From the NCBI GenBank assembly GCA_963665275.2, contig CAXXIN010000014.1, forward strand, positions 32,001 to 96,000: a stretch of DNA of 64,000 nt, given 5' to 3'. Positions within the stretch are counted from its first letter, which is position 1. Each line of letters starts with the position of its first letter. The position numbers and the translations under genes were made by a program. The notes under the pieces were generated by a model. The model ran no database searches and was not told the origin of the DNA. It saw nothing but the letters and a program-made list of their open reading frames with translations. The DNA comes from Negativicutes bacterium (GTDB taxonomy: Bacteria; Bacillota; Negativicutes; UBA1444). This document shows, in pieces, positions 23,625 through 45,759 of this stretch.

Positions 23625-23698
23625 AACTCCCCTCCCGCCGAAAAAGCGGGAGGGGCTGGGGGTAGGTCCGAGACCCTAGCCGACCGAGGCGATTCCGA

Positions 23699-24134
23699 CA
23701 GGGAAAACTTCCAGTGAGCTGCCGCCACCTGCCGACACGTCGGATAATAGCCCCACGTTATGTCAACCCGAAGGGCGCGCAGCGAAAGCGAGCGGTAGAC
23801 GCGTAGCGGACTACTTTTGACATAACGTTCTATTATCGGATGGGCCGGCATGACTGGGCTGAATGATGGCACCCGTTCCCCCGTCCTCCGGCAGCTACCG
23901 TGGCCGATGGATCGGGCGCGGTGGCTGCTACCCAGGCAGCAACAGACGCTAGGCAGTAACGAGGCGTGATCCGGACCGGGGCAGTATGCGCCGGGGAGGA
24001 TGACGCCGACGGGATAGGGCAGGAATCTGCGGGAGGCGATGCGGTTCCCGGCGGTCTGATGCCAAGGCGGCCCGACGAACGGCAAACGGAAGCCCGCCAC
24101 GTCGGTGGCGGGCTGGAGGCCGGGCTAGGGACGC
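23699..24134 (+). repeat. Structured GC-rich element copy A, with paired dif-like sites at 23737-23843
   Basis: Homologous to the reverse complement of 45150-45759, with compensatory changes. Confidence 0.8.
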
Positions 24135-24157
24135 AAAGCGAGATGGGGACGTTTAAA

Positions 24158-25819
24158 TTATTTGGCTCCATATTGCTTCAGATATTCTATCGTTTTCTTA
24201 AACTCAGGAATATTATATTTTTTGTCACATTCCAGCGCATAGTCGAGAGCACTACGGCGACCCTGGTCAAGGACATGCGGATTAGCGCCCATTTCCAGCA
24301 TTCGTAGGATGATTTCGGGTGGGCCGCCCCAGGCCGCGTACATCAGAGGAGTTTTCCCATATTGATCTTGCACATTAATCGCTGCGCCTCTATCCAGCAG
24401 CAAGTTCATTTTTAACCTTCTGCCACCACCGTGCTTTGCGGCCAAAATTAGGGGAGTTCCGCCCTGATTATCCCGCGCGTTAATATCTGCGCCTGCGTCA
24501 AGCAATATCAGCATTTTCGTGTTGTTATCCATAGTCGTTGATACCATCCACATCAAAGGGGTTCTTCCTTCATCATCCCGCGCATTGACTGCAGCACCCA
24601 TTTCAACAAGTAATTTTGCGATATCCGGCTTATAGGCAGCGCTAGCCTGCATTAATACCGTCGTTCCTTTGTTGTTTTTCGCATGAATATCAGCACCGTG
24701 ATCAATCAACATTTTTGACAAATCGGAAGTCCCGTTTTTCGCGGTAGCATGCAGCAACGGCGTGGATCCTGTTTCGTCCCTGGCGTTGATATCTGCGCCT
24801 GCCTCCATCAGATATTGAATTTTGTTCATGCTTTCTATTTGGCTGGGCCTATGACTACTTTGATACCAACGTACTGCTTCAATAAATGCATTGTTTTTGT
24901 CCGCCGGCGAAAAACGAATCCCTTTGGACAACAAATCTTTGACTGTTTCCAAACTCCCCCGCCCGGCCGCGTAGATCAGAGCCGTTTTCCCGCTGGCATC
25001 TTCAGCCTGGATATCGGCGCCTTGGGCAAGCAATAAATCCACGGCATCCACTTTTCCCGTTTCGGCAGCACTCATAAGTGCGATTTGACCTTGGCTGGTT
25101 TTTGAATTGACATTTGCACCGTTTTCCAACAACAGTTTCATAGCTTCGAGATTTCCTCTGTTACTGGCTACCATCAGCAGCGTATTTTCTGGAAGGGAGA
25201 TGGTTTCCACGCCAGCGAAAGGCTTCTGTCTATATATCTTTACCGTCTTTCCACCACCATCAAGGTTTTTCGCATTCACATCCGCGCCTTTGGCGATCAA
25301 GAGTCTGGCCAGATCCAGGTTGCCTTGCTCCAGCGCAATTCCGAGGGGGGCTTCCCACTGGTTGTTTCTTTCGTTGATGCCGATTCCGCCATAGATCAAG
25401 GGCTTGGCCAGGAATGGATATTCTTTGACGGCCAGTGCCGTTGGCGTTCGGACTCCTTGGGCACCCAGCAAGCAACTGAGGATAGCGCAAGCAAGAGTGA
25501 ATCCTACGAAAATTTTCGCTCGACGTTTGGCTTTCGCATCTTCGGTTAAGGACCGGTAACGGGAGAGCATGTGGCCGCTGACAGGGCAGAGGACTATAAC
25601 AATAAAAACTAAACATAACACGAACCACTCTTCCAAATTCCAAGGCTCATGTTGAGCGATAAAAGCCCAGACAAAATAAGCGATAGGTAAAAGCACAAAG
25701 AATCGAACAACGGTATACCCATCGAAAATCCGTAGATTTTTCAGCGTAGCAATCATAAAGACCAACCAGCAAACAAATACAACACTGAGAAGAGGTGCGA
25801 TCTTCACTAGCAGCAGCAT
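24158..25819 (-). CDS. Membrane-anchored ankyrin repeat protein
   Basis: About 4 N-terminal TM segments; many G.TPL..A...G....LL..GADIN repeats. Confidence 0.9.
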   Translation of the reverse strand: MLLLVKIAPLLSVVFVCWLVFMIATLKNLRIFDGYTVVRFFVLLPIAYFVWAFIAQHEPWNLEEWFVLCLVFIVIVLCPVSGHMLSRYRSLTEDAKAKRRAKIFVGFTLACAILSCLLGAQGVRTPTALAVKEYPFLAKPLIYGGIGINERNNQWEAPLGIALEQGNLDLARLLIAKGADVNAKNLDGGGKTVKIYRQKPFAGVETISLPENTLLMVASNRGNLEAMKLLLENGANVNSKTSQGQIALMSAAETGKVDAVDLLLAQGADIQAEDASGKTALIYAAGRGSLETVKDLLSKGIRFSPADKNNAFIEAVRWYQSSHRPSQIESMNKIQYLMEAGADINARDETGSTPLLHATAKNGTSDLSKMLIDHGADIHAKNNKGTTVLMQASAAYKPDIAKLLVEMGAAVNARDDEGRTPLMWMVSTTMDNNTKMLILLDAGADINARDNQGGTPLILAAKHGGGRRLKMNLLLDRGAAINVQDQYGKTPLMYAAWGGPPEIILRMLEMGANPHVLDQGRRSALDYALECDKKYNIPEFKKTIEYLKQYGAK

Positions 25820-25942
25820 AGCAGCTCCTTTCCAATTGTTGCTATTTTCCGCAGGGTATTTCTGGGTTCCTGCGGACAAAAAGCTTAATTATATAGGACG
25901 ATTGTCCTGTTGTGGACATTGAGTTATTAGTGCGAGGTCAGA

Positions 25943-25977
25943 GCGGCCCGACGAACGGCAAACGGAAGCCCGCCACG
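25943..25977 (+). repeat. Element copy D (35-bp direct repeat of the 3' part of copy A)
   Basis: GCGGCCCGACGAACGGCAAACGGAAGCCCGCCACG, identical to 24067-24101. Confidence 0.9.
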
Positions 25978-26022
25978 GATGTGACGGGCATTACGGATCG
26001 ACGCCGGCAGCATACAGCTCGC

Positions 26023-26226
26023 TCATTGGCGGGCGATACGCAGGCGAACCTGTTGGTCGATTTCGCGGCGGGCTTCCGATAGCGAAAGATGGCCGGACTC
26101 CACGCGGGCGAATATGTGGCGGCTCCATTCCGGAACTGCGGCATTCTCCAGTCGCAAATCGGCGCGGGCCTGGCGCATGGCTTCCGCCACCGGCAGGGTT
26201 GTAATGATCTTTTTCATCGGCAACAC
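26023..26226 (-). CDS. VbhA-like antitoxin family small protein
   Basis: QARADLRLEN...FARVESGHLSLSEA resembles the VbhA pattern. Confidence 0.5.
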   Translation of the reverse strand: MLPMKKIITTLPVAEAMRQARADLRLENAAVPEWSRHIFARVESGHLSLSEARREIDQQVRLRIARQ

Positions 26227-26248
26227 GCCCTTTCTGGCAATAATGTGA

Positions 26249-26292
26249 TATCAAAGTAGTATCAAAGTAGTATCAAAATAGTATCAAAGTGC
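26249..26292. repeat. 4 x 11-bp tandem repeat
   Basis: TATCAAAGTAG x2, TATCAAAATAG, TATCAAAGTGC. Confidence 0.9.
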
Positions 26293-26370
26293 TACTACTT
26301 TTATAGTATATCATGCCGCAGAGCTGCCATGGAGGAGGGCAGTCAGACGGCGAAAAAAGGAGGCTTTCCC

Positions 26371-27219
26371 ATGCAAAAAAATCAATCACTCGAACGCGTA
26401 TTCCACTTTCAAAACAAGCCGGTGCGAACGCTGGACTTCTTTGGCTCGCTCTGGTTCGTGGCGAAAGATGTCTGCGAAGTTCTCCGAATTCGAACGAATT
26501 CCATCCGGTGCGTCCTGGATGAAGATGAGGTGCGAGCGTTCAATCCCAATGACAATAGTATTGACATTGGGCAAGAGGAAGTCGGGCATGGCGGACGCAA
26601 CATGCTGGTGGTAAGCGAACCCGGACTCTATTCTCTCGTATTGAAATCGCGCAGGCCTGAAGCGCGGCAGTTCAGGCGCTGGATTACCCACGAAGTTATT
26701 CCGGTGCTGCGGGCGGCCGGCAGCTACCAAATGCCAGCTCCTGCCGGGTCGGGTCAACTGTTGCAGTTTTCCCGGCGGGATCTGCTCAATCTGGCGGTGG
26801 AGGCGGAAACCGAATGCGAGGAGCTGCGCGGTGTCGTGGTCGACATGTTGCCCAAGGTTGAATTTTACGACCGGGTGGCGGACACGAGCGCGTCGTTTTC
26901 GCTCGGAGAAACGGCCAAGATGATGGAGATCCCCGGTTTCGGACGCAACAACTTGATCCGGTTCCTGCGGGATGGGGCCGGAGTCCTGATGGCCGACAAC
27001 GTGGCCAAGCAGAAATATATCAACCGAGGCTATTTTCATATCGTACAGAGGGACTACTGCGCGCCGGACGGTACGCCGCGCGTGAAAGCGGTGACGCGGG
27101 TCTATGAAAAAGGCGTCGATTATATCCGACACCTTCTGGATGACGGTGAATACTTGGTTGCTGCAAGCGGTAGCGCAGACAGCAGCCATAGTAGATCCGC
27201 ATCCGAAGGATGGAGGTAA
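26371..27219 (+). CDS. Phage antirepressor (BRO-N plus KilAC/ANT domain)
   Basis: WFVAKDVCEVL, VSEPGLYSLVLKSRRPEARQFRRWIT, PKVEFYD..GRNNL..FLR. Confidence 0.9.
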   Translation: MQKNQSLERVFHFQNKPVRTLDFFGSLWFVAKDVCEVLRIRTNSIRCVLDEDEVRAFNPNDNSIDIGQEEVGHGGRNMLVVSEPGLYSLVLKSRRPEARQFRRWITHEVIPVLRAAGSYQMPAPAGSGQLLQFSRRDLLNLAVEAETECEELRGVVVDMLPKVEFYDRVADTSASFSLGETAKMMEIPGFGRNNLIRFLRDGAGVLMADNVAKQKYINRGYFHIVQRDYCAPDGTPRVKAVTRVYEKGVDYIRHLLDDGEYLVAASGSADSSHSRSASEGWR

Positions 27220-27527
27220 GTGGTGGCAAGCGCCAGCGCAGACAGTGGTCATAGTAGATCCGCATCCGGAATGAAGTGAAGGACGAATGAGATCTGGACC
27301 GCGCGAACGCGGGCCGGTAGGGTGGAAACGTAAAACAGCCGCCGCAGGAGAATGCGGCGACTGTTTTGAAGAAGAGGATGATACTCAGGGGCAAGCAAAG
27401 CGACCAGACAGCGCTCGCCAGTATCTACGGGTGCATATCCGTTGATACTTCATTATCTTACACCTGATGCAAGAGGAAGGACAACTTGGATTTTCCTTGG
27501 TATCGGGCAAAAAGGGAGGCATATTTT

Positions 27528-28136: not shown

Positions 28137-28168
28137 CAGTTTTTCGGCGGTGGATCTATACTTAGTTC

Positions 28169-28543: not shown

Positions 28544-28768
28544 ATGGCTGTTACTAAAGCGCCCCAGGAATCCCGCATCGGCATCAAAGTCATCAACGGC
28601 GTCAACGCCACCGGGGGCAACGTGTTCAAGACGCTGGGCTTTTCCAATGTGAAGCCCGCCGCGCTGGACCAGGACGTCTACGATGTCGCCGCCAGCCTCG
28701 CAGGACTGCAGGCGAAATCGCTGGTCTCGATCGTGCGAACCGACACCGCCAACCTGATCGGCGAGTAA
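28544..28768 (+). CDS. DUF1659 family protein
   Basis: 74 aa; G.NVFKTLGFSNVKP.A.DQDVYDVA.SLAGLQ pattern; strong RBS. Confidence 0.8.
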   Translation: MAVTKAPQESRIGIKVINGVNATGGNVFKTLGFSNVKPAALDQDVYDVAASLAGLQAKSLVSIVRTDTANLIGE

Positions 28769-28802
28769 CGCCGGCACTAAATTTTAAGGAAAGGAGGGGC
28801 AA

Positions 28803-29018
28803 ATGATGACTCGAACACTCAAACTCGGATTCAAAAATGCGGACGGCAAGGATGTGAACATCCTTGTCGCCGACCCGAAAGACGGCATTACCAAAGTGGA
28901 AGCCGTCGCCGCCCAGACGCTGATCATCGCCCGGAACCTGTTCGCATCGACCGGCGGCGATCTCATCTCGGCGCTCGATCCCGTTGTGTTGACTCAGGAC
29001 ACCACGCTGCTGGCCTAG
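28803..29018 (+). CDS. DUF2922 family protein
   Basis: TLKLGFKNADGK.V.I.V.DPKDGIT..E...A...II..NLF pattern. Confidence 0.85.
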   Translation: MMTRTLKLGFKNADGKDVNILVADPKDGITKVEAVAAQTLIIARNLFASTGGDLISALDPVVLTQDTTLLA

Positions 29019-29022
29019 TCTC

Positions 29023-29217
29023 ATGGACTGGGCGCAGCTCATCTCCCAAGTGGGATTCCCGATTGCAGTTTCTGCATGGCTTTTGATCCGCCTAGATGAT
29101 CGACTCGGCGCGTTCGAAAAGACCGCCGTGGCGATCTGCCAGCGGCTCGAGGACCAAAGCAACCGCTGCAGTGAATGCAAAGAGTGGAGGCAGCGAAACG
29201 AAAAAATGAAGGCATAA
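29023..29217 (+). CDS. YvrJ family small membrane protein
   Basis: ISQVGFPIAVSAWLLIRLD signature. Confidence 0.85.
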   Translation: MDWAQLISQVGFPIAVSAWLLIRLDDRLGAFEKTAVAICQRLEDQSNRCSECKEWRQRNEKMKA

Positions 29218-29340
29218 GCGCTGACCACGCCATCTTTGCTGAAACAAGCTAAAAATGAGGGACACGCTGCCGAAGGAAAGGCAGCTGTCCCGCATTTTTT
29301 GTCATAAAACAACAATGAAAATAATTGAGGGAAAGAGGTT

Positions 29341-29772
29341 TTGAATATGTTGTTAACAGATGTGACCAAGATTTTGAAAGTACTGCTCGGAGCGTTCGGG
29401 GCTGTGGCCTCCCGCGATGATCTTACCCAGCGCCGGATCGGCCAGATCGGCGAAGTGATCGGCGCGGTGGATGATGTGGCGGCGTATGAGGAAGACAAGG
29501 ACGGTGGGGGTGGGACGATGGCCCAGAGGCGCGTCGAGGAAGCGCATGATATTATCCACCGGGTGGCAGCGATATTGGCGATGGAGGATGAGGGGGAGAA
29601 CGGTGGCGGAGACAATTCTGGCGATGCGGGGCAGGACAATACAGGATTGGAAGCAACTGCCGAGCAGGACGTCATCTCCAGGAAGAATGGTGACGAGCCG
29701 CTGGCTGAAGTTCCTTGGGACGGGACGATCGACGGGGAGACCATTGAGCTGAAGGAAGACGAAGAAGAATAA
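29341..29772 (+). CDS. Hypothetical protein with acidic C-terminal tail
   Basis: 143-aa ORF with RBS; helical N-terminus, D/E-rich tail. Confidence 0.6.
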   Translation: MNMLLTDVTKILKVLLGAFGAVASRDDLTQRRIGQIGEVIGAVDDVAAYEEDKDGGGGTMAQRRVEEAHDIIHRVAAILAMEDEGENGGGDNSGDAGQDNTGLEATAEQDVISRKNGDEPLAEVPWDGTIDGETIELKEDEEE

Positions 29773-30282
29773 CCAAGAAGAAAATCATTGGCTAAATGAA
29801 AATGACTGGCTGGAACAACTTCAGCTGGTCGTTTCGTTTCAGAACACCTGAGCAATGTATTCAAAGATGGCCGATTAGCGTCAGGCGGCAGAGTGATCCG
29901 GAAATTCCGGATAACTGCGTCTGACGTCAACGAGCCGCTGGCCGAGTTCCTGAGGACGGGACACTCGCGGGGGAGACCATCGAGCTAAAGGAAGCTGAAG
30001 AAGAATAGCATAACTGTGCGGGCTACAAATAAGTAGCCTGCTTTTTTTGTCTAAGTAGTATTTGATGGCAGGATTACGAAAGGTTTTCGGGAATCGATTG
30101 AACGAGTACCCGAAATTGCAAGTTGAGTATTTTTCCCACATTGGCTGATGAGAGTGACAGACGATTCCGCTTATTCTACTAATGGGTACAAAAAGTAATA
30201 AAGAATTTTATTTTTAGTATTGTAAATACTAAAAATAAAATGTATGATGTCATCAGATGGTCGATCATGGAGGAAATGGAAA

Positions 30283-31893
30283 ATGAATGCGAAAGCATTA
30301 GAATCTTTTGTCCAATTGTTATACATACGAAACATGGTGGATCGGGAGCAGATCTTGTTGGAAGCTGTTCGAGTCGTTCGGACTTTTCAACAGCTGCACA
30401 ACCGACAAGAAACCATTTCCGACACACCGGAAGATAAAGAACTCTTGTTTGCTGAAATGCAAAGTGTTTCGGAGTCTTCCGAATTGGGACACTTTCCCGG
30501 TGATCGGGAATTTTTCTACAACCTCTTTGCGGTTGCATGTGAACTCGACCTGATAGAGTTGCTGGTCAAGTCCGGCCGAAACGACCGCACAGGAATGCTG
30601 GCGCCCGCGTATCTGGTCGAATATTTGGCCGGTGGGATTACAAAAGACACCGCCCGGGTTTTCGTGGCAGAAGCTGAAAAATTTGCCGAAGGTCTGCAAA
30701 AATTAATAGCAGAGAATCCCAAAGTGGAATTTACATTAACGACGGAAAAGAAAATACATTATCTCCTCCTGGTAACGGCTTTTTCACAAAACCATAATGT
30801 CCGGATACTGAATCAATCGATTTATCGTGAACTGTTACATAAAGACAGCTATGATTTATTGCTCACCATTCCATCGTTTGGCAATCGTTATAACTCGGAG
30901 GAATCCAACAATAATTTTATCACTCGAGACTCGGAATGCATCGCCGTGGAAAACCTCCTCCGCCATCTTGGCGAGCGCGGAAAACTGGCCGCAGTGTTGC
31001 CTGCCAAAGTAACCTTCGCCAGCGGTCCGGTTCAGGAGTTTAGACAATGGATCATGGCCGACTATCACCTGGAAGCCATATACTCTCTGCCAGAAGGAAT
31101 CTTCCGGCCCTATGCTGGCATCAAGACGTATTTAATGGTTTTTGACGCAAAAACGACGATAGGGGTTACAGTCGGCAAAATAATCGATGAGGACTATAGA
31201 CTGCTAGTCAAACAAAAGCAATGGATTTCCGACGTAGAATTCAACGGGCACGAAGATTGGCGGACAGAAATATATCTCGCCGATGATAACGAAGCCATCC
31301 AGAAGTTTAAAACCTCCGGTCTCGAAAAAATCAAACTCAAGGATGTGGCAGAAATCTTCCGGGGCAAGTCCGTGCTCAAAGATGATCTGCAGCCAGGAAA
31401 AATAAGAGTCCTGAATATATCCAACATGGACGAAGGCGAACTCATCTTCGACGAAATGGACACCATCCACGAAGAAATTCGCAAGGTGAAACGGTATCAA
31501 CTGGAATCTGGCGATATCGTGCTAACCTGTCGGGGGACATCAAACAAAGTCGCCGTCTTCCCGGAAACAGAGCATGTGGTCATTGCCTCGGCAAACATCA
31601 TCGTGCTGCGTATCAAAGAAAAGATCGCGCCTCAATATCTGAAAATATTCCTGGATAGTCCGATCGGACAAATGATGATCAAGAGTTTTCAACGGGGAAC
31701 CACGATGATGAACATCAACCCCAACGACATCGGCGAAATGGAGATTCCGCTGCTGCCCATGGAAAGACAACAAAGTCTCGTTCGGCAGTTTCTGGCAGAA
31801 CAGGAACGATATCGGCGGGAAAAAGCGGAAATTGAACAGCGATGGGAAAAAGAACGCTCGGAACTATACAATAATTTTGTAAGGGGATGCTAA
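30283..31893 (+). CDS. Degenerate N6-MTase domain fused to a single HsdS-like TRD
   Basis: MTase-like core ([19 protein letters not shown]) with TIPSF in place of NPPF; C-terminal [31 protein letters not shown]. Confidence 0.75.
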
Positions 31894-31894
31894 G

Positions 31895-33433
31895 ATGGCG
31901 GAGAATGCGAATGGTGCAACACTTGGCTTTGAAGAAAAACTGTGGCAGGCTGCGGACAAAATGCGCAACAATATGGATGCGGCCGAATACAAACATGTTG
32001 TATTGGGCCTACTGTTTTTGAAATACATTTCCGACGCATTCGAAGAAAAATACGAAGAGTTGAACAAGGATGCACTGTCTGATCCAGAAGACCGAGACGA
32101 ATATACGGCAGTAAATATTTTCTGGGTCGCCAAAGAAGCCCGCTGGAACTTTATCAAGGAAAGTGCAAAAAGCCCGAAAATCGGTCAGATCATCGATGAA
32201 GCCATGGTGGCCATCGAGAAAGATAATTCCAATCTCAAAGGGGTACTGCCAAAAGATTATGCCCGGTCCACGCTGGACAAAACCCGGCTGGGTGAACTGA
32301 TCGATATTCTTTCCTTCAATATAGGGGATAAGGAGAGCCGGTCGCAGGATATCTTGGGCCGAGTCTACGAATACTTCCTCTCCAAATTTGCAAGCGCCGA
32401 AGGTAAAAACGGCGGTGAATTTTATACGCCGCAGTGCGTAGTAAAACTGCTGGTGGAAATGATCGAGCCGATGAAAGGGAGAATCTATGACCCCTGCTGC
32501 GGATCAGGCGGCATGTTCGTGCAAAGCGAGCGCTTCCTGAGTGCGCATAGTGGCAAGCGCGGCGATATTTCGGTATACGGGCAGGAATCCAATCCCACGA
32601 CCTGGCGGCTGTGCAAGATGAATCTGGCCATTCGAGGCATCGATGGCAAGCTCGGCGACTACAATGCCGATTCCTTCCATAATGACCTGCACAAAAGTCT
32701 GAAGGCGGACTATATCCTGGCGAATCCCCCCTTCAACATCAGCGACTGGGGCGGCGCGAAACTGACCGAGGATGTCCGCTGGAGCGGCTACGGCATACCG
32801 CCGGCCGGTAACGCAAACTACGCCTGGATTCTGCACATGCTCTGGCATTTGGCTCCCAGCGGCATTGCTGGATTTGTCCTGGCCAACGGTTCCATGTCGA
32901 CGTCAACGACGAGTGAAGGTGAAATCCGAAAACAGTTGGTGGAAAAGGACAACGTCGACTGCATCGTGACCCTGCCGGGGCAGCTGTTCTATTCGACGCA
33001 GATTCCGGTATGTCTGTGGTTTGTGACCAAGAATAAGGCGGCGAAGGGACACCGCAGCCGCAATGGCGAAATCCTGTTCATCGACGCGCGGAAACTGGGC
33101 ACCATGGCGGACCGGACCCATAAGGAATTTTATGACGAGGATATTAAAAAGATTGCCGATACCTACCATTCCTGGCGCGGTGAAGAAGGGACCGGAGAGT
33201 ATGCGGATGTCAAAGGTTTCTGCAAAGCAGCGAAGCTGGAAGAAGTCCGGGAACACGAATATATCCTGACGCCGGGGCGATATGTGGGGATCGAAGACGT
33301 GGAGGAAGACGCCGAGCCGTTCGAGGAGAAGATGACGCGCCTGACGGGGGAATTGGCCGAGATGTTTGCCAAGTCGCGGCATTTGGAAGGCGAGATTCGG
33401 CAGCGGCTGGGGGCGATCGGGTATGAGTTCTGA
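31895..33433 (+). CDS. hsdM: Type I RM methyltransferase subunit
   Basis: [23 protein letters not shown]. Confidence 0.96.
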
Positions 33434-33456
33434 AAAGGAAAGATTAGTATTGGGAT

Positions 33457-34671
33457 GTGATTATGTTGAATGAAAAAAACACGGTGTGGAAAGACACGGT
33501 GCTTGGTATATTTATTTCCATTCAACGGGGTCATGATCTGCCAGAGCAAAACCGCAATAGTGGTGAAATTCCAATAATCGGATCCTTCGGAATTACTGGC
33601 TTTCATAATAAATCCATAGCTCAAGGTCCCGGAGTAACTATTGGTCGAAGTGGCGCGTCCATGGGTGTTGTGTCTTATTCCGACAAAAATTATTGGCCGC
33701 TAAATACCGTTTTATATGTCACAGATTTCCATGATAATGATCCTAAATTCGTTTATTACCGCTTAAAAACGATTGATTTTACAATATATAATTCTGGCAG
33801 TGCGCAACCATCATTAAATCGAAATTATATATATTCGGTTCCATTATGCATTCCAAATAAAAACGAGCAACGTGCCATCGCAGCCACCCTCTCCGCCCTC
33901 GACGACAAAATCGAAATCAACAACCGCATCAACAAAACCTTGGAAGAAATGGCCCAGGCCCTCTTCAAGCGATGGTTCGTCGATTTCGAGTTTCCGGACG
34001 AAAATGGCTTGCCGTACAAGTCCTCCGGCGGGGAGATGGAAGAGAGCGGACTGGGGCCGATTCCGAAGGGGTGGAAGGTTGAATCACTCGATAGTATCGC
34101 GGATTATTTAAATGGACTTGCTATGCAAAAATATCGACCTGAAGGCGAAGAGTTTTTACCTGTTATTAAGATTCGTGAACTCAATCAAGGGAAACCTGAT
34201 GGACAAAGCGATAAAGCCAGCCCCAATATTGATTCTAAGTACATTGTTAATGATGGTGATGTTTTATTTTCATGGTCGGGAAGCCTAGATGTGAAAATAT
34301 GGTGCGGAGGTAAAGGCGGTTTAAACCAACATTTGTTTAAAGTGACATCTGATCGATATGAAAAATGGTTTTACTATTTGTGGACCAAGCACCATCTTGA
34401 AAAATTTCGCGGAATTGCACAGGATAAAGCAACTACCATGGGACACATACAAAGAAAACACCTTAAAGAATCTTTGGTAGATGTTCCTGCGCAAGATGTT
34501 TTGGGGAAAATTAATTCGATAATGCGGCCGATTTTTGACCTTTATATCACAAGAGAAATTGAAGCAGCGACCTTGGTGGCAATAAGAGACACCCTATTAC
34601 CCAAACTTATCAGTGGCGAAATCCGTATGGATAGCTCATTTGCGGAGGACATCGGTAATGGAGAAAGTTAG
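33457..34671 (+). CDS. hsdS: Type I RM specificity subunit
   Basis: Two TRDs; EQRAIAATLSALDDKIE central region; RDTLLPKLISGEI. Confidence 0.95.
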   Translation: MIMLNEKNTVWKDTVLGIFISIQRGHDLPEQNRNSGEIPIIGSFGITGFHNKSIAQGPGVTIGRSGASMGVVSYSDKNYWPLNTVLYVTDFHDNDPKFVYYRLKTIDFTIYNSGSAQPSLNRNYIYSVPLCIPNKNEQRAIAATLSALDDKIEINNRINKTLEEMAQALFKRWFVDFEFPDENGLPYKSSGGEMEESGLGPIPKGWKVESLDSIADYLNGLAMQKYRPEGEEFLPVIKIRELNQGKPDGQSDKASPNIDSKYIVNDGDVLFSWSGSLDVKIWCGGKGGLNQHLFKVTSDRYEKWFYYLWTKHHLEKFRGIAQDKATTMGHIQRKHLKESLVDVPAQDVLGKINSIMRPIFDLYITREIEAATLVAIRDTLLPKLISGEIRMDSSFAEDIGNGES

Positions 34672-35935
34672 AATTGAATCAATTGGTGATTTCGTGGAAA
34701 TATTAAGCGGTCTCCGAACACTCTTGGCGGAAGAAGGCAACGACAAAATTGCTTTCTTCCGGGGGCAAAAAAATTCCGGCTGGGAAGAGATTTATCCGAG
34801 TGTCTTTCGCGCCCCATATTTGATGGCTGAAAATGAATTATATTACAATCTGTCGATGAAATGCCCAGAAGCAATACCAGCTAATTTTTCGATTATAGAT
34901 AAACTGGTGCTTATGCAGCATTATGGATTACCCACGCGACTTCTTGATGTTACAACCAATCCTTTAGTCGCTTTATTCTTCGCTTGCCAGAAAAACACCG
35001 AACGAGTACCAGCGTCTGAGAACTGTGAAATGAGTCATGAAGGCTGCTTTCGGGAAATCGAAACAGACGGAGAAATCCTTGTTTTACGTGATTATCGTCC
35101 TCAACAAACCGGATTTGAGAGAGCAAGCGTTATTGCTGCATTGGCAGAAATTAATTATCAGTTTACCCTGGGCGAGTTAAAAATGATCATAGATCGGCGA
35201 GGGTTAGGGACGTATTCAATATCAAGTTTGTCCGATATGTTGCAGCAAAGCTTGCCAATAAACACAAGAATGAATAACGAAAGAATTAAGAGACAATCAG
35301 GAGCGTTTATTATTTGCGGAACGCATCTGAATTTTGAAGATACTAACTCTGACGATTCTGTGGCGGTGAAGAAAGCAATTAATTTGCGGACCCGATTTGA
35401 ACAAGACGCTGGGGTACGCTACGTGGTTGCGTGGGATAAGAAAGAGCAAATATTGGAAGAGCTTGATTTCATAGGAATCAATGAATCCTTCCTTTATCCG
35501 GAAATAGAGTATCAGTCCAAGTATATTAGAGAGCATCAAATAAGGAATATCCAGTTTGATAGCGGGATCGATGGCGCTGAGCGAACGAAATTAGCAGAAG
35601 AGCTAGAAGAAGTGAATTTATATGTATCGCCTGAAAACCTTGAACGTTTTGCAGAAAGAGCGAAGATAGAAATACTTCTTATATTACAAGGCGTTGAGCA
35701 GAAAGAAATAATAACAGATTATATTGGCGAGATACTAAGAAACAACTTGGATGTGGATTGGATAAATAGAGAGGCCAGCAAGGCCAAAATTGCAGTAGCG
35801 ATTAAGCGCGTATTCAGGGAACACACAACGCTCGATTTTGTTCGAGTGAAAAAACTTATAGATGACATTCTTTTAATTGTTGAAGATTGCTATCATAAAT
35901 GCGCAGCTTCACAGGAGGTACCTGAAAATGTTTGA
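34658..35935 (+). CDS. FRG domain protein with HsdR-like C-terminal segment
   Basis: FFRGQ, PSVFR, MQHYGLPTRLLDVTTNPLVALFFAC, RIKRQSGAF. Confidence 0.9.
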   Translation: MEKVRIESIGDFVEILSGLRTLLAEEGNDKIAFFRGQKNSGWEEIYPSVFRAPYLMAENELYYNLSMKCPEAIPANFSIIDKLVLMQHYGLPTRLLDVTTNPLVALFFACQKNTERVPASENCEMSHEGCFREIETDGEILVLRDYRPQQTGFERASVIAALAEINYQFTLGELKMIIDRRGLGTYSISSLSDMLQQSLPINTRMNNERIKRQSGAFIICGTHLNFEDTNSDDSVAVKKAINLRTRFEQDAGVRYVVAWDKKEQILEELDFIGINESFLYPEIEYQSKYIREHQIRNIQFDSGIDGAERTKLAEELEEVNLYVSPENLERFAERAKIEILLILQGVEQKEIITDYIGEILRNNLDVDWINREASKAKIAVAIKRVFREHTTLDFVRVKKLIDDILLIVEDCYHKCAASQEVPENV

Positions 35936-36642: not shown

Positions 36643-36693
36643 AATAGCGGGGTCTTCTGGACAGGGTCTGATTTTGTTGGGGGGGTGCGATTC

Positions 36694-39884: not shown

Positions 39885-39932
39885 GTATAGAGAAATTTGC
39901 AATTCAAATAAACTAATGGGAGGGATGCAATA

Positions 39933-40931
39933 TTGGCAAGTAACGTAAACACAGCGTTTGCAGAGTTTTTGAAAAACACTGTGAATCTGGATGCAAATGA
40001 AACAAATACGGCGAGAAATAGTCGTGATTGGTTGGTTGGGAAGATACACGGTTTTGGGGGCAAGGACATGTTCCCTGTGCTTTACAATGAGAAGGATATT
40101 TTCTTTGGCTCTTTTGCTAGAAAAACAAAAATTCGCGAACTTGACGATATTGATATTATGATATGTTTGAGTGCTCTGGGGAGTACTTATAATCCCTATC
40201 AAGCTGGAAGTATTGAAATCACTGTGCCTGAATCGGCTGAAGCGCTGTATTGCCTATGCCACGATTACACTGACAAGTTGAATTCTAGAAAAGTAATAAA
40301 TAAAGTAATTTCAAAGCTAAGCAGTGTGCCGCAATATAAAAAAGCAGAAATAAGCAGGAACCAAGAGGCGGCTATACTAAATTTGCAGACCTATACTTGG
40401 AGTTTTGATATTATTCCTTGTTTTTTTACCTCCCCAGATCAATATTGCCGAACCTATTACTTGATTCCAGATGGTAGCGGCAATTGGCAGAAGACTGATC
40501 CGCGAATTGATAGTGATCATGTCTCGTCATTAAACCAGAAGCACAACGGTTATGCATTGAATTTAATAAGAATCGTCAAGTATTGGAATCGAAGACCAAC
40601 GATGCCATCGATGCAATCATATCTACTGGAATGTATGCTGCTGAATCATTTGGAAGGTTCGACCCAATGTTCGGATTATATTGACATTGCGTTTAGGGAT
40701 GCATTGGCTTACATATATTCTGCAATTTATAATAGCGTTCAAGATCCAAAAGGTATCCAGGGGGATCTCAACAATTTGCCAACTGAGGAAAGAAAAAAAA
40801 TATCCGATAGGGCGGCGATGGACTACAATAAGGCAATTGACGCAGGGACTTATGAAGGAAAAGGAGACCATAAATCGGCAATTAACAAGTGGAGGGAAAT
40901 TTTTGGCGATCAATTCCCGCCATATACATAA
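39933..40931 (+). CDS. SMODS/CD-NTase nucleotidyltransferase 1
   Basis: FGSFARKT....DDIDI, FDIIP, TDPR, IVKYWN, WREIFGDQFP. Confidence 0.85.
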   Translation: MASNVNTAFAEFLKNTVNLDANETNTARNSRDWLVGKIHGFGGKDMFPVLYNEKDIFFGSFARKTKIRELDDIDIMICLSALGSTYNPYQAGSIEITVPESAEALYCLCHDYTDKLNSRKVINKVISKLSSVPQYKKAEISRNQEAAILNLQTYTWSFDIIPCFFTSPDQYCRTYYLIPDGSGNWQKTDPRIDSDHVSSLNQKHNGYALNLIRIVKYWNRRPTMPSMQSYLLECMLLNHLEGSTQCSDYIDIAFRDALAYIYSAIYNSVQDPKGIQGDLNNLPTEERKKISDRAAMDYNKAIDAGTYEGKGDHKSAINKWREIFGDQFPPYT

Positions 40932-40989
40932 GACTCATTTAAGAAAATATCTGCTCATAGCAACTGCTGATTTTTCAGGAGGGATATTC

Positions 40990-41856
40990 TTGGCGACAAC
41001 AATTGCCCAATCTTTTGTGGGATTTAAATCCAACCTTGAGATTACGGGGTTACAGGCAGAAACCATTTCAACGCGACAAAATAATGTTCGAGATGCTGTC
41101 AAAAGAGACTTTGATGTTTTGGACTCGTTTTTAACTGGATCATATGCCAGAAGCACAATGATAGCGCCGTTAAATCAAGCGGATGTCGATATATTTACAG
41201 TTTTGAAAACGGAACACTATCGATCAGACGGGCAAGCATACTTGCTGGATAAGGTGAAAAATACATTAATAAAAACATATCCGAAATCACCCAAAGTCAG
41301 CAGAAATGGACAAGCTGTTACAATTACATTCACTGATTTTACAGTTGATCTTATTCCTGCATTTTATAGGAAGGGCGGCGGCTATTTGATTCCCAATACA
41401 ATTACTAGCAGTTGGATTGCCACTGATCCCAAACAGCATATTTCAATCTCAAGTGAGCAAAATAAAAACCACAATGGAATGTTGATACCATTGGTGAAAA
41501 TGATCAAATGCTGGAATAAGAGCATGAATTATTGGTTTGGTTCATTTCATCTAGAGGTAATGGCTCAACAAATACTCAAAAAGGTTATAATCAGTGATTA
41601 TCCGTCCGGGGTTAGGTTCTTTTTCGATAAGGGCAGGGATACAGTTGGAAAGAAAACCCCTGATCCAGCTGGCTATAACGACGATGTGGGTTGCAACATT
41701 AATACAAAGGCGAAAATTGATGAAGCCGCTAGTAAATTTACGACTGCTTACACTCGGGCAAGCAAGGCGGAATCATTTGCGCGAGACGGGAATATACCAA
41801 GTGCGGTTGAAGAATGGAGAAAAATTTTCGGCAATCAATTTCCGGCATTTGGATAA
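40990..41856 (+). CDS. SMODS/CD-NTase nucleotidyltransferase 2
   Basis: TTG start after GGAGG; LTGSYARST.....ADVDI, VDLIP, TDPK, MIKCWN, SFHLE, WRKIFGNQFP. Confidence 0.88.
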   Translation: MATTIAQSFVGFKSNLEITGLQAETISTRQNNVRDAVKRDFDVLDSFLTGSYARSTMIAPLNQADVDIFTVLKTEHYRSDGQAYLLDKVKNTLIKTYPKSPKVSRNGQAVTITFTDFTVDLIPAFYRKGGGYLIPNTITSSWIATDPKQHISISSEQNKNHNGMLIPLVKMIKCWNKSMNYWFGSFHLEVMAQQILKKVIISDYPSGVRFFFDKGRDTVGKKTPDPAGYNDDVGCNINTKAKIDEAASKFTTAYTRASKAESFARDGNIPSAVEEWRKIFGNQFPAFG

Positions 41857-41868
41857 GGGGGGGCTTGT

Positions 41869-42744
41869 ATGATAGGCGATCAAAATTCACCTGAAAATTT
41901 ACGACTTCTTGCGGCCCAGCGGCAGATATATATTGATGCAAAGTCATATGGAAAGTTTAGATTTTGGGGGTCGTTGGCATTTGCGGTGGTTGGGCCACTT
42001 GCTGCAGCGTATTGTGCTGGTGCTAGCATTTGGGTGCTGCTTTTGAGCAGTATTGCATGGCCCATTATGGTTGAAATATTTAAAGTAAGACAAAAAACTT
42101 TGACCTCACGAGCTGCTACCATACAGGAAGAGTTTGATGTGAATATGTTCGGGCTGCCATGGAATCATATTTTGGTTGGAAACAAAATAGCTAAGGAAAT
42201 TATAATTGAAGCGGATCGTCAATTTAGAGGTGATAAGAAAGACTTACAGAACTGGTATCCTGTTAGTTCACAAGAAAAAGGGCCTTTGGATATTCTTGTG
42301 AAGCAACGTACCAATTTGCTTTGGGATAGGCGATTGCGTATTAAGTACGCGAGGTTGTTAGGACTGGTAATTGCTTCAGTTTTTGTTGTTGAAGTTTGTA
42401 TCTGTATCTATCGAGAAATGAGATTATTAGACTGGCTTATTCAGTATTTTGCTCCATTGATGCCACTGATTTTACTTGGGATTGAAAATATTTTAACTCA
42501 TTATGAAATTGCAGGACAGAAGAAGCAGCTGGAAGACGTTATTATGTCAATTTATGAAAAAATTAATGATGGTTTAGTTGAAATATCCTTCGATAAAGAA
42601 TATCGACAAATTCAAGATGCCATATATTCAACGAGAAGACAAACTGTGTTGGTGCCGGAATTTTGGTCTAATAGGTTAAGTAATTCCTTTCAGAGCAACA
42701 TGATAGAAGCCGCGCGTGAGTATCAAAATCTGAAATTAAAGTAA
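41869..42744 (+). CDS. SMODS-associated 4TM (S-4TM) effector
   Basis: QN...LLAAQRQIY..AK, IQEEFD, NWY, QRTNLLWD..LR, QDAIY..R; four hydrophobic segments. Confidence 0.85.
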   Translation: MIGDQNSPENLRLLAAQRQIYIDAKSYGKFRFWGSLAFAVVGPLAAAYCAGASIWVLLLSSIAWPIMVEIFKVRQKTLTSRAATIQEEFDVNMFGLPWNHILVGNKIAKEIIIEADRQFRGDKKDLQNWYPVSSQEKGPLDILVKQRTNLLWDRRLRIKYARLLGLVIASVFVVEVCICIYREMRLLDWLIQYFAPLMPLILLGIENILTHYEIAGQKKQLEDVIMSIYEKINDGLVEISFDKEYRQIQDAIYSTRRQTVLVPEFWSNRLSNSFQSNMIEAAREYQNLKLK

Positions 42745-42751
42745 TGTTTTC

Positions 42752-42919
42752 CGTACCCCTTGCCCGGCCTTCAGCCCGCCATCAGGTGGGCTTCCGTTTG
42801 CCGCTCCTCGGGCCGCTCTCGTTATCGCCCACGTCACCGTCGCGACCTTCCGAACAATCCTGCCCGCTTTCGCAGAACGCGCCAACATAGTGCTGGTTTC
42901 ATCATAGCGCCGCCACCGC
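42752..42919 (-). repeat. Structured element copy C
   Basis: 42805-42919 matches 45201-45318 in blocks of 20, 14, 18 and 12 bp; 42752-42815 matches the reverse complement of 24065-24134. Confidence 0.85.
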
Positions 42920-43070
42920 CTGTAGATCCGTCCTCGCCTCGATTTGAGCGCGGACTTCGCTATGGCCGCCGGCGGCGCTAAATATATTCGTAACGCTATT
43001 GCGCGAAAAAAGGAAATGGGCCGCTCAAGCAGAAACAAATATTGATCGAAGAAAAAGCATGGAGGGACAA

Positions 43071-44768
43071 ATGGAAGTAGCCATGTTGCAAAACATGATC
43101 TCCGCCGGTGAACAGTTGTCGGTTGAGTTTAAATCAGACCGTAGCGGTTCCCGGGGTGAGCATATGCTGGGAGAAGAAACGATCTTGAGCGAAGCGGTGG
43201 CGTTGGCCAACTCCGGTGGCGGCTATTTGCTCATTGGGGTGGAAGATGATGGCAAGGTAACCGGCTTGAATTCTCAGCGCAGTGACCAGCGTCCGGAAGC
43301 CTTGCAGGCATTCATTTTTAATAAAACGCAGCCACCGATTTCGACTGAAACCGAAGTCGTTTCCCATGCGGATGGGAGTGTGATGGTGGTTCGGGTGCTT
43401 TCGATGCATGGCGTGGTTTATGCTACAATGTCTGGCAAAATGCTGCGCCGCGAAATGACTGCGCAAGGACCGGAGACTCGGATAATGTACCCTTATCAGG
43501 TGATCAGCCTGCTTTCACAACAACGGCAGATCGATTACTCGGAACAGATCCTGCATGATTTGGACTGGACGGCACTCGATCCGCTGGAACTCGAACGGGC
43601 GAAGCAAATGGTGGAACGAAATGCGGGTCGCAGCGATGCTTCGCTGGTGGGGCTGGATGCGGTTGAATTGGCCAAGGCGCTGGGGCTGGTTGTGACGGAT
43701 GGCAGCGTTTTGCGTCCCACCATTGCAGGACTACTGGTTGCAGGGCGGGAGGCGGTCTTGCGCCGGTACTTGCCAATGCATCACGTGCTTTTTCAGCGGA
43801 TCGATGAACGGGATGAAGTGCGGATAAACGATTCCTTCCGACAGGCGCTTCTCTCGACCCTGGACGCGGTTGAACAGCGGTTTGCCGCTCAAAATCAGGA
43901 ACAAGAGGTCATGGTGGGCTTGTTTCGACTGTCAATTCCTGATTATTCACAGATGGGCTTTCGTGAGGCCTTGCTGAACGCGATAGTTCATCGTGATTAT
44001 GCGGTCCGGGGCGAAGTTTTTATCCAGTGGCGACCGGATCATTTATTGATTACGAATCCGGGTGGCTTCATGCCAGGAATTACTTTGGAAAACCTTATAT
44101 ACCATGAGCCGTTGTCGCGCAACCCTTTGTTGGTCGATATTTTCAAGCGACTGGGACTGGTGGAACGGACGGCTCGGGGAGTGGATCGGATTTTTCAGGG
44201 TCAATTGCGGTTTGGGAGACCGGCGCCAGACTATTCGCGTTCGGATGCTTCCGGTGTGCGGGTGCTGTTGCCTGGCGGCAGGCCTTCGCTGGAGTTTGCC
44301 CGACTGGTGTATCAGGAAGAAAAAGCAATGGGAAAAACACTGCCGCTGGACCAGCTGATGGCATTAAACCACTTGTTTTTCTGCCGACGCACAGATGCAG
44401 AAACCTTGGCTAAGGCGATCCATCGAGATGTGAACGCGGCGCGGGCTTTGCTGGAGAATTTGGTGGAACAAGGCTGGGTGGAAGCTTCCGGCAATAAAAA
44501 AGGCCGCACTTATCACTTCGCAGCCAAAGTCTATGCTGCGGAGGGTAATCCGGCGGGATACGTGCGGGCGGCCGGGCTGGATCCTGAGGAACAGGAACAA
44601 CGGGTACGAAAATTTGTTAAGGCGCATGGGAGAATAGAGAGGAAGAACGTGATGGATCTTTGCAAGGTGGATGCGTCGGATGCTTTCCGAATTCTTCAAC
44701 GGCTTGTTAGCGCTGGCGAAATCGTCTTGGTAGGCAAAGGACGCAGTGCCTACTATCGAAAAAAATAG
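43071..44768 (+). CDS. AlbA_2/Schlafen domain, HATPase-like (RecG-C type) and wHTH protein
   Basis: VEFKSD, ALANSGGGYLLIGVEDDG, REALLNAIVHRDY, NPGG, RNP, C-terminal HTHs. Confidence 0.88.
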   Translation: MEVAMLQNMISAGEQLSVEFKSDRSGSRGEHMLGEETILSEAVALANSGGGYLLIGVEDDGKVTGLNSQRSDQRPEALQAFIFNKTQPPISTETEVVSHADGSVMVVRVLSMHGVVYATMSGKMLRREMTAQGPETRIMYPYQVISLLSQQRQIDYSEQILHDLDWTALDPLELERAKQMVERNAGRSDASLVGLDAVELAKALGLVVTDGSVLRPTIAGLLVAGREAVLRRYLPMHHVLFQRIDERDEVRINDSFRQALLSTLDAVEQRFAAQNQEQEVMVGLFRLSIPDYSQMGFREALLNAIVHRDYAVRGEVFIQWRPDHLLITNPGGFMPGITLENLIYHEPLSRNPLLVDIFKRLGLVERTARGVDRIFQGQLRFGRPAPDYSRSDASGVRVLLPGGRPSLEFARLVYQEEKAMGKTLPLDQLMALNHLFFCRRTDAETLAKAIHRDVNAARALLENLVEQGWVEASGNKKGRTYHFAAKVYAAEGNPAGYVRAAGLDPEEQEQRVRKFVKAHGRIERKNVMDLCKVDASDAFRILQRLVSAGEIVLVGKGRSAYYRKK

Positions 44769-44862
44769 AGGCTCCGTTGGTTGCCTTTTTTGCGTGTTTC
44801 TGTGCGTTTATTTGTGCGTTTACCCGCTGGTAATGGCGAAATATCAAGTGTTATAGAAAATA

Positions 44863-44912
44863 TTTATTGCGAGCATTAAACGCACAATTGAGCGTTTAAT
44901 GCTCGCAATAAA
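44863..44912. repeat. 50-bp near-perfect palindrome
   Basis: TTTATTGCGAGCATTAAACGC-ACAATTGA-GCGTTTAATGCTCGCAATAAA. Confidence 0.9.
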
Positions 44913-45149
44913 CGAAATTCTTATAATCCAATCTTGGCTAAAAAAGCAATTAGGTAAATAAAAAACGCAATTAGAATTTCAGCGCAGGTCACAAATTCAG
45001 TAAAATGGGCCTATCTCGTATTTACACAAAGCGATGGAATAAATTGCGTATTTCAGCGACAGGTAAATAGAAAAAGGCTTAGCCCAGCGCTGCATACTAG
45101 AGGGGAATGGAATTGCAATTAATTGTAAAATGGGGAGTTGCGCGCCACT

Positions 45150-45759
45150 CGCGTCCCTGCGGGCCGGGCTGCGATCCGCTGCGCGGCTCTCCGCTCCCGG
45201 TCCTCGGGCCGCTCTCGTTACTGCTCCCGCCACCGGTCCCAAGCCTCTCAATGAATCCTGCCCGCTTCCGAAGAAACGCGCCAACATAGTGCCAGCCTCG
45301 TCAGTCCGCCGCCACCGCAGCCGAAACGTCGGCCACGGTCGCGGCTTTTGCATTGCACCGCTGCGTCTTCGCCTGCGCTCTGGTTGCTCCCTTCGGGGGA
45401 AGGCGTCGTGGCTTGCGCCACCACGCCCGCGCTGCCGAAGTGCTCTGCCCGATCCGTCGGCGTAATTCGCCCCGGCACCTTCGGTCCCGGTCCGGATCAC
45501 TCCTCCTTACTGCCAGCCGCCCGCTACTGCCTGGGAGAGCAGCCACCGCACCCGAAGCGTCGGGCACGGTAGCTGCCGGGGCGGCTCCCGGTCGTTATCG
45601 CCAACATCACCGCCAGGCATCCGATAACATCCCGTTATGTATAGTTGTCCGCTGCGCGGCTACCGCTCGCTTTGCTGCGCGCCCTACGGGTCTACATAAC
45701 GAATGTTATCCGACGCTTCTGGCTGGTTTGGGTGGCGGCACACGAGAGGATTTGCCCTG
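45150..45759 (-). repeat. Structured GC-rich element copy B, with paired dif-like sites at 45617-45716
   Basis: Inverted homolog of copy A; also shares sequence with copy C. Confidence 0.8.

Follow-up and report, generated by a model that had tools for sequence, protein, structure and literature searches.

The stretch of DNA analysed here (the window; 64,000 nucleotides (nt), positions 32,001 to 96,000 of contig CAXXIN010000014.1 of a Negativicutes bacterium) contains a 31.7-kb island with an exact 45-nt repeat at its two borders, which corresponds to the 3' end of a tRNA-Lys(CTT) gene. Within this island lie copies, termed A, B, C and D, of a long structured element which an earlier note, made from the letters alone, had described as a large non-coding RNA (ncRNA) or single-stranded DNA (ssDNA) signal whose copies bracket antisense cargo genes like cassettes. 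A (23672-24134, + strand) and B (45130-45880, - strand) are oppositely oriented, diverged copies of one long element, and D and C align as copies of its 3' sub-modules. The element family is real and is undescribed in the libraries and literature that we searched; judged by gene order in related islands, the elements are parts of the island backbone and not cassette brackets. The members and parts found in the window are:

23672-24030, + strand: core of element A (A-type), with a 5' mini-hairpin, the multi-helix junction of domain I, hairpin II and domain III, drawn from covariation
24058-24134, + strand: 3' module of element A, a 9-bp hairpin that reads on the - strand as a probable terminator of the ankyrin gene, whose stop codon is 24 nt away
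25934-25989, + strand: D, a second copy of the 3' module, downstream of a small - strand gene (26023-26226)
27145-27292, + strand: module X, two tandem copies standing alone
42752-42919, - strand: C, a truncated 3' portion of a B-type element ending in a 3' module; on the + strand it follows the effector gene of the cyclic-oligonucleotide-based antiphage signalling system (CBASS)
45130-45880, - strand: element B (B-type), with a 5' stem-loop module at 45793-45880 and the core at 45440-45793
45308-45345 and 45130-45240, - strand: further parts of element B, a second copy of hairpin II and the 3' part, respectively

In a BLAST comparison within the window's own genome, A matched B at 74% identity over 324 nt (E 1.2e-42) and otherwise only D and C; about 330 nt of A and B are alignable with MAFFT. 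A repeat search resolved four collinear pairs of inverted arms between them (23931-24012/45454-45535, 82 nt, 79%; 23888-23929/45538-45579, 42 nt, 88%; 23785-23815/45643-45673; 23756-23786/45671-45701). The alignment over about 320 nt that had been reported previously is thus borne out together with the two motifs quoted for it, the hairpin GCAGCTACCGTG..GCGGTGGCTGC and the motif GTGATCCGGACCGGG. The borders needed correction: A starts near 23672, and B extends from about 45880 to 45130 when the 5' stem-loop module common to other copies is included. The exact repetition of the 3' part of A in D was recovered as well (25943-25977 is identical to 24067-24101, 35 nt, within a wider pair, 24058-24113/25934-25989, of 86%), with the ankyrin gene lying between A and D. 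Similarly, C repeats parts of B in direct orientation (42801-42839 and 45197-45235, 85%; 42876-42919 and 45275-45318, 82%) and carries an inverted copy of the 3' module of A (42785-42816, 91%), and the AlbA gene lies between C and B. Both enclosed genes are antisense to the elements, as had been claimed (ankyrin, 24158-25879, on the - strand; AlbA_2, 42999-44768, on the + strand), and C does abut the 3' end of the CBASS operon, where the gene of the four-transmembrane (4TM) effector ends at 42744, 8-13 nt before C.

A protein-coding reading of the elements was ruled out, in agreement with the earlier statement that indels break the reading frames. Eight of ten indel runs between A and B are not multiples of three, the mismatches show no 3-periodicity (26/23/23 by codon position), stops occur in all three sense frames in each of ten copies, and the two long antisense open reading frames (ORFs) of A and B share no similarity.

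The fold was obtained with RNAalifold from a MAFFT alignment of ten copies from five genomes. Its 11 helices comprise 72 pairs, the paired cells make up 90.8% of the total, and 20 of the pairs show double-sided changes, compared with 9.9 +/- 1.7 in column shuffles (none of 500 reached 20) and 4-8 compensated pairs in slid-partner controls. The fold belongs to one strand: there are 77 G.U/G.T cells in the forward structure and 5 when it is mirrored to the other strand, and the mirrored structure loses 72 canonical cells because the 77 G.U/G.T cells turn into C.A. Folding z-scores agree, both with RNA parameters (B(-) -4.82 vs B(+) -0.74; A(+) -3.56 vs A(-) -1.80) and with DNA parameters (A(+) -5.57 vs A(-) -2.52; B(-) -3.46 vs B(+) -1.69), so that the assignment of A(+)/B(-) as the folding strand, made originally from G.T pairs, is confirmed by two kinds of evidence. 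The element is a non-coding, strand-specific structured family, and has the strand-specific, extensive secondary structure that is looked for in single-strand origins (sso); the folding energies do not discriminate RNA from DNA.

No known Rfam family, a possibility raised at the outset, lies behind the elements. With Rfam 15, the whole window gave two tRNAs only at the gathering score, the A/D and C/B regions gave only chance-level matches to microRNAs and small RNAs at E<=10, eight other copies gave no match at E<=1, and the models for ROOL, GOLLD, OLE, HEARO, EAR and group I/II introns did not match the elements. By BLAST, 9 of the 12 other genomes compared from the same family gave matches, and 48 genomes from different families of the class gave none. 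R1, a covariance model with 190 positions that spans domain I and hairpin II and scores A at 170 bits and B at 172.9 bits, detected the core in 6 of the 13 genomes from the order, the window's own included, and in 7 of 151 genomes of the class; the sole match outside the family (G038) is weak (E 3.5e-4), keeps the outer helices and is followed by a same-strand endolysin gene. Searches of 50,697 phage records, of E. coli genomes and, by blastn, of 72,556 plasmids gave no similar DNA, and the open-access literature searched contained no description of the element. Of the loci found with a loose sequence pattern, 236 were scanned with nhmmer and contained no true homologue; a stricter pattern gave 21 metagenome loci, three of them true (L299, L314, L303) and one matching by a hairpin only, and three viral loci, none true. 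Nor are copies scattered through the window's genome, which holds A, B, C, D and fragments in two island remnants only.

Of these remnants (G000:C18:253462-253636 and G000:C16, about 241-252 kb; L291, L290), one consists of the 5' module and the first 90 nt of a B-type core. The other is a decayed island with a BroN fragment (85% over 79 amino acids (aa)) and an integrase fragment.

The features that surround the elements in the window island, and on which the interpretation of their placement depends, are:

19570-19614, + strand: attL, the 45-nt 3' end of the tRNA-Lys(CTT) gene (19539-19614), an exact repeat of 51335-51379
19768-21180, - strand: island tyrosine integrase (Phage_integrase, 2.3e-21; integron-integrase model 36.4 bits, cut-off 265)
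21252-21938, - strand: cI-like repressor (HTH_3 and Peptidase_S24)
22119-22592, + strand: HTH_17, excisionase-like regulator (PF12728, phrog_66)
22661-22681, - strand: two adjacent perfect DnaA boxes, matches to TTATCCACA, the probable island origin
22953-23624, + strand: DnaD-like helicase loader or replisome organizer (phrog_7498, 1.4e-20)
23629-23655, - strand: terminator-like GC hairpin of 11 bp at the left border of A, followed by a T-rich tail on the - strand alone
24158-25879, - strand: cargo gene of an ankyrin-repeat protein (PDC-M72A-like), with a promoter-like site at 25916-25888 scoring 10 of 12
42999-44768, + strand: AlbA_2 and HATPase_c_4 gene (Pfam), a conserved convergent neighbour of B-type elements, with the same domain pair beside the B-type copies of islands G010:C33 and G010:C27
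45896-45915, - strand: intrinsic-terminator-like hairpin with a T-run, directly upstream of B on the strand of B
51335-51379, + strand: attR, the 45-nt direct repeat

The island thus begins with the integrase, the cI/S24 repressor, the HTH_17 regulator, the DnaD-like loader, A, the ankyrin gene (-), D and a 67-aa gene (-), continues with a BroN/ANT antirepressor, an Amidase_3 endolysin, three small genes and a type I restriction-modification (R-M) locus with an FRG gene, and ends with CBASS (two cyclases and the 4TM effector), C, the AlbA_2/HATPase_c_4 gene, B, an ATPase with further ankyrin cargo, and attR. It has no virion genes and therefore resembles a satellite or a reduced prophage. The two DnaA boxes are the only perfect TTATCCACA matches in the window and one of five close pairs genome-wide; they lie in the 360-nt gap that separates the DnaD-like gene from the xis-like one, at a distance of 1 kb upstream of A, and probably mark the island origin.

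Genome G010 holds two further complete islands, G010:C33 and G010:C27, in which this order and the inverted pair recur with other cargo; together with the window island they define a small family of tRNA-Lys-integrated, satellite-like islands within one Negativicutes family. In all three the backbone reads integrase, repressor, excisionase, replication genes, A-type element, cargo, antirepressor, endolysin, cargo, AlbA-like gene, B-type element and attachment site, and the A-type and B-type copies are inverted relative to each other. The G010 islands use a different initiator and have no DnaA-box pair at the corresponding place. R-M and CBASS are replaced by a KAP-NTPase/QueC-like/TatD set in one of them and by a chemoreceptor in the other; where the window island has the ankyrin gene, several small antisense genes are present in one and none in the other. 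An A-type copy follows replication genes in five of six copies with readable upstream DNA (the window, G010:C33, G010:C27, G011 and G006). The B-type copy is convergent with an AlbA_2/HATPase_c_4 gene in 3/3 islands; in both G010 islands it is the last feature before the attachment site, so that in the circle its distance from the replication genes would be about 3 kb.

The copies also differ in an ordered way. The outer core sorts by position, A-types being 69-74% alike as against 63% for A and B, whereas the inner domain and domain III are common to both copies of one island (88% and 77% for A-B; 69% and 76% for C33r-C33l), which suggests conversion or a shared specificity. Inner variant 2 is found in 3/3 A-types beside a phrog_2562 initiator plus loader, and variant 1 in the A of the window beside the phrog_7498 DnaD-like gene; the inner variant of A-types thus tracks the kind of replication gene in 4/4 cases, in a small sample of related copies.

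The elements have a mosaic make-up, drawn from a 5' stem-loop, the core, hairpin II in one to three copies, module X (which lies inside the domain III hairpin in L314 and G011a) and the 3' module. Such a modular build would be expected if they were a selfish or neutral mosaic of small hairpin modules, similar to BOX sequences, repetitive extragenic palindromes (REP) or miniature inverted-repeat transposable elements (MITE), accumulating in the intergenic DNA of the islands without a role there; lone modules (X at 27145-27292, a 5' module at L023:4706-4760, the fragments in C16 and C18) and the frequent position of matches at the ends of short contigs point in the same direction. We consider this explanation very improbable, as syntenic A-type and B-type copies are kept in 3/3 islands, the 20 compensated pairs indicate selection on the fold, and each island has two full copies with none outside islands or their remnants. 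In addition, the few copies in the window's own genome and the absence of a flanking duplication at an occupied-vs-empty site, described below, do not conform to MITE, REP or BOX sequences.

The 3' module consists of a 9-bp hairpin followed, on the opposite strand, by TTCCGTTTGCCG, and is conserved in sequence (80-96%). Its context was examined in eight copies, with seven more matches on short contigs left out of the count. Seven of the eight lie 13-167 nt past the stop of an opposite-strand gene and the eighth is 444 nt away; the genes ending at the seven are the ankyrin gene, the 67-aa gene, the CBASS effector gene, two AlbA-like genes and two unnamed ORFs. D is terminator-like on the - strand at 25989-25968. 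From this arrangement the 3' module is best read as an intrinsic terminator of cargo genes that converge on the elements, and its duplication round the ankyrin gene, like the B-like 3' sequence on both sides of AlbA, may represent recombination joints.

A further explanation is that the repeats are, primarily, recombination sites of a cassette system, attC-like or of the Campbell type, for capturing and exchanging accessory genes. Direct repeats do flank both genes, with the 3' module of A and D at the ankyrin gene (35 nt exact) and, at the AlbA gene, B-like 3' sequence of about 170 nt in C and B; copies of the 3' module separate successive antisense cargo units in G010:C27, seven of the eight copies examined lie within 170 nt of a convergent gene end with one at 444 nt, and the available text of PMC5703833 describes the RSB within ssoA as a recombination site by which plasmid cassettes are shuffled. 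The earlier placing of duplicated 3' sub-modules on either side of these two genes is thereby supported. However, the sole clean occupied-vs-empty pair (G010:C27 and L303), in which about 880 nt comprising an antisense DUF2202 gene and X replace about 95 nt of unrelated filler, has its breakpoints in the middle of the element and not at the 3' module, and shows no duplication. The integron-integrase model TIGR02249 gives the three island integrases 36.4, 39.1 and 60.2 bits against a cut-off of 265, which makes the integron analogy of the earlier note weak, the ankyrin gene has a promoter-like site of its own, and an integron reading of the whole elements is unsupported because A-type and B-type copies keep fixed backbone positions in 3/3 islands whatever the cargo. 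No excision joints at the repeats were found in the DNA contigs compared; contig ends at 24072-24096 and 25948-25972 were considered as excision products and rejected, since they reflect the repeat in assembly graphs. A primary role in cassette exchange is, in our opinion, improbable. One run labelled RNA-Seq, which we judge to be probably DNA, covers 24123-24388 and not the core of A. A Xer-like recombinase gene and a phrog_38313 gene abut and truncate the element in L314:191-2228 and L283:891-2793, which suggests that this pair is another mobile unit inserting at the element.

The loops of the fold provide a further type of evidence. Across eleven element stretches (6.9 kb), C-GNA-G triloops on stems of 3 bp or longer number 39 on the sense strand vs 7 on the antisense strand, and 9.5 +/- 3.2 (maximum 18) in shuffled stretches, whereas tetraloops of the GNRA and UNCG types number 5 and 3. 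The 16S and 23S regions of the same organism have 4 GNA loops vs 19 GNRA and UNCG loops. At conserved positions the GNA loop remains constant while the stems covary between CCC/GGG and CGC/GCG. According to the available text of PMC13037366, mini-hairpins of the GCGNAGC type have in DNA an extraordinary stability that is much reduced in RNA, bind single-strand-binding protein (SSB) poorly, and occur at the complementary-strand origins of G4, St-1 and alpha3 and in the ssDNA promoters of N4; the ssiA of RSF1010 carries the mini-hairpin CCGAAGG, a motif which is also present in A and B. The elements therefore contain stable DNA hairpins of the C-GNA-G type, which that text links to single-strand initiation (ssi) signals. 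B-type copies of G010:C33 and of G005 (L021:7100-7420, L262:715-1016) have at least 300 nt of extra non-coding 5' sequence, of 78% identity and rich in the same mini-hairpins; a 177-aa ORF upstream of the G010:C33 copy is spurious.

Of the explanations considered, we tentatively favour one where A and B are a pair of ssDNA initiation signals, one for each lagging-strand template of the excised circle, a reading that we regard as a real possibility although short of probable. The excised island would form a circle and replicate from an origin beside its own DnaD-like gene or its initiator-plus-loader genes. A would lie just past the replication genes on the + strand and B across attP on the - strand, and with diverging forks each would therefore be on the lagging-strand template of one fork; strand and position fit such a template if the origin is at 22661-22681 and the forks diverge, as we infer. 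In the G010 circles the control-replication module would have an element on either side, at distances of about 1-2 kb and 3 kb. Once unwound, an element may fold into a multi-helix structure studded with C-GNA-G mini-hairpins that resists coating by SSB, and so may act as a single-strand initiation or primosome-assembly signal, as do ssiA/ssiB, the G4 ori(-) and sso. The 3' module would have a separate job as an opposite-strand terminator of converging cargo genes and, being shared, might therefore also be a homology patch for exchange of cargo blocks, leaving direct repeats at the ankyrin and AlbA genes. To the observed structure, folding strand, conserved positions, mini-hairpin enrichment and terminator context, the proposal adds ssDNA as the presumed acting molecule, priming as its presumed function, and a presumed geometry of replication.

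Several observations weigh against initiation signals of this kind. Both the position of the origin and bidirectional replication are assumptions. In the window island, 5.6 kb of cargo separate B from attR, and the metagenome A-type copy L299 has no recognisable replication gene upstream. The element is absent from 82 viral loci with related replication initiators, and is therefore not a general partner of that replication module; likewise, clusters of GNA hairpins downstream of related replication genes formed no general pattern in 80 viral loci, and 600-nt windows with at least five GNA mini-hairpins occur elsewhere in the genome. With a core of 330 nt, a total length of 0.46-1.1 kb, long-range helices and an optional X, the elements exceed in size and elaboration the ssi and sso signals described, for which the available texts give about 40 nt (RSF1010 ssiA), about 160 nt (ssoA) and about 200 nt (ICEBs1 sso1). 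Three G.U/G.T pairs are invariant in 10/10 copies, which is more typical of RNA, and A is probably transcribed with the replication operon because it is co-oriented with it and no T-tailed terminator stands between.

The last two points lead to the main rival, that A and B are a new family of large structured ncRNAs, either cis-acting antiterminators such as HK022 put, EAR and Tn916 canT or stable scaffold RNAs, which we find possible but doubtful. A would then be the tail of the rightward early operon (xis and replication genes), and B would derive from leftward transcription, which can pass through attP only once the island has been excised. The size, the multi-domain junctions and the optional helix expansion of the elements are typical of RNAs, as are their invariant G.U pairs, and the sense-strand z-scores with RNA parameters (-4.82 for B, -3.56 for A) are consistent with such a molecule. 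Past A, most genes (antirepressor, endolysin, R-M, CBASS, AlbA) share its strand for 21 kb, interrupted by several terminators, and in the circle A and B would point away from the control region in the manner of nutL and nutR. There is also a precedent in Tn916 canT, a 452-nt orientation-specific cis-acting antiterminator that is needed after excision, as the available text of PMC11658703 describes it. Against this, the loops are unlike those of the organism's rRNAs (39 GNA vs 8 GNRA plus UNCG in the elements, 4 vs 19 in rRNA), no Rfam model matches, and an antisense gene splits the A-type element in G010:C27. No promoter-like site was found before A or B, and the terminator-like hairpin with its T-run immediately upstream of B (one is found likewise, by eye, upstream of G012a) leaves no room for a promoter. 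As everything downstream of B-type copies is antisense in 3/3 islands, there is no obvious target for antitermination, and a canT-type RNA model fits A better than B. For A, an ssDNA promoter of the Frpo type that would drive neighbouring cargo was also considered and rejected, as the ankyrin gene is on the wrong side and a - strand terminator is present at the left border of A.

We therefore retain, tentatively, the pair of initiation signals. Of the original alternatives of a large ncRNA or an ssDNA signal beside a rep-like gene, the second has gained the GNA mini-hairpins, the DnaA boxes and the strand geometry, and RNA remains its main competitor. The most comprehensive version of the proposal is that the family represents a hitherto undescribed class of ssDNA elements, very large (0.5-1.1 kb), modular and covariation-supported, with C-GNA-G arrays, present as an inverted pair that flanks the integration-regulation-replication module and primes both lagging strands after excision, with inner domains matched to the replication proteins and terminal modules that are homology patches for swapping defence cargo (R-M, CBASS, Qat, ankyrin, AlbA). 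In this complete form we regard it as rather unlikely.

Other parts of the island and its host deserve brief mention. An 11-nt unit, TATCAAAGTAG, is repeated 3.8 times at 26249-26290 between the divergent 67-aa and BroN/ANT genes and is operator-like. The three small + strand genes after the endolysin gene (28544-29217; 74, 71 and 64 aa; phrog_20302, phrog_21372) have 71-73% DNA identity in G010; a 434-aa ORF at 28626-29930 (-), where a third non-coding element had been suspected, is spurious, the + strand carrying small genes instead. The type I R-M locus (30244-35935) has an additional gene fusing a methyltransferase and an S domain, and the FRG gene (PDC-S15) lies between hsdS and hsdR. The two CBASS cyclase ORFs (39933-41856) overlap as listed, and the real start of the second is probably near 40990 because its PADLOC match begins at residue 104. 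A PtuA/AriA-like ABC ATPase at 46924-48828 appears to be split into two ORFs (46924-47565 and 47569-48828), the second having a methyltransferase domain. Both ankyrin-repeat proteins of the island (24158-25879 and 48870-50483) match the PADLOC candidate PDC-M72A. The host genome carries a spore-type LonC protease, an rplI-dnaB-purA arrangement and RND-family efflux genes, which fits a diderm Firmicute.

Beyond a few models, little is known of how phage satellites and small integrative islands replicate once they have excised, or of how they maintain a stable backbone despite the swapping of defence genes. A conserved strand-specific pair beside a replication module offers a testable handle on lagging-strand priming in islands of diderm Firmicutes. 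If the elements are ssDNA signals, the known size and architecture of such signals would be extended; if they are RNAs, they would form a new class of large structured RNAs tied to the control of mobile elements, comparable to canT. Under either reading, the shared terminator module would provide a simple mechanism for cargo exchange at defence hot-spots.

Among known systems, integron attC sites resemble the elements in being folded single-strand sites at the 3' end of each cassette, just as a 3' module hairpin follows each convergent cargo unit here. They differ in that no IntI is present, the module is conserved in sequence (80-96%) and not in structure only, the cargo has a promoter-like site, and the cores are not linked to cassettes. 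The large RNAs ROOL, GOLLD and OLE are likewise of 0.5-0.8 kb, GC-rich, highly structured and often found in prophage-like DNA (available text of 10.1101/2024.12.08.627333), but the elements do not match their Rfam models and have loops dominated by GNA triloops. Tn916 canT, HK022 put and the B. subtilis EAR share with them a long, structured, orientation-specific build within mobile elements of Firmicutes, and canT, of 452 nt, acts after excision across the circle joint (available text of PMC11658703). Those systems have one element per operon followed by co-oriented genes, in contrast to B-type copies, where the downstream genes are all antisense and where Rfam gives no match.

The sso of rolling-circle replicons and the sso1 of ICEBs1 are also orientation-specific, extensively folded ssDNA, of flexible position relative to rep and often with cassettes between, and within ssoA the RSB doubles as a recombination site (available text of PMC5703833). 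Function of an sso, however, needs a HUH Rep or a relaxase and a displaced strand, whereas the islands have a DnaD-like gene (phrog_7498) or a phrog_2562 initiator plus loader; two inverted copies would be senseless for rolling-circle replication, and blastn found no similarity to 72,556 plasmids. The origins of G4, St-1 and alpha3 and the ssiA/ssiB pair of RSF1010 are closer in that they fold on one strand and carry C-GNA-G or GCGNAGC mini-hairpins, and ssiA and ssiB are, in addition, two signals on opposite strands beside an origin that start complementary or lagging-strand synthesis (available text of PMC13037366). They measure only about 40-150 nt and lie within or beside the origin, compared with cores of 330 nt, elements of 0.46-1.1 kb, and distances of 1 kb and 3-9 kb from the presumed origin here, where no gene for a RepB'-type primase was seen and priming is so far a proposal. 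The ssiA of pAMbeta1, a theta replicon of Firmicutes, differs in being the single site of a unidirectional replicon, and the elements had no sequence match in the 72,556 plasmid records. The available text of PMC5703833 places this ssiA downstream of the replication gene and origin, on the lagging-strand template, with a need for PriA, DnaB, DnaD and DnaI, and this dependence on a DnaD-type loader has its counterpart in the island, where A directly follows a DnaD-like gene.

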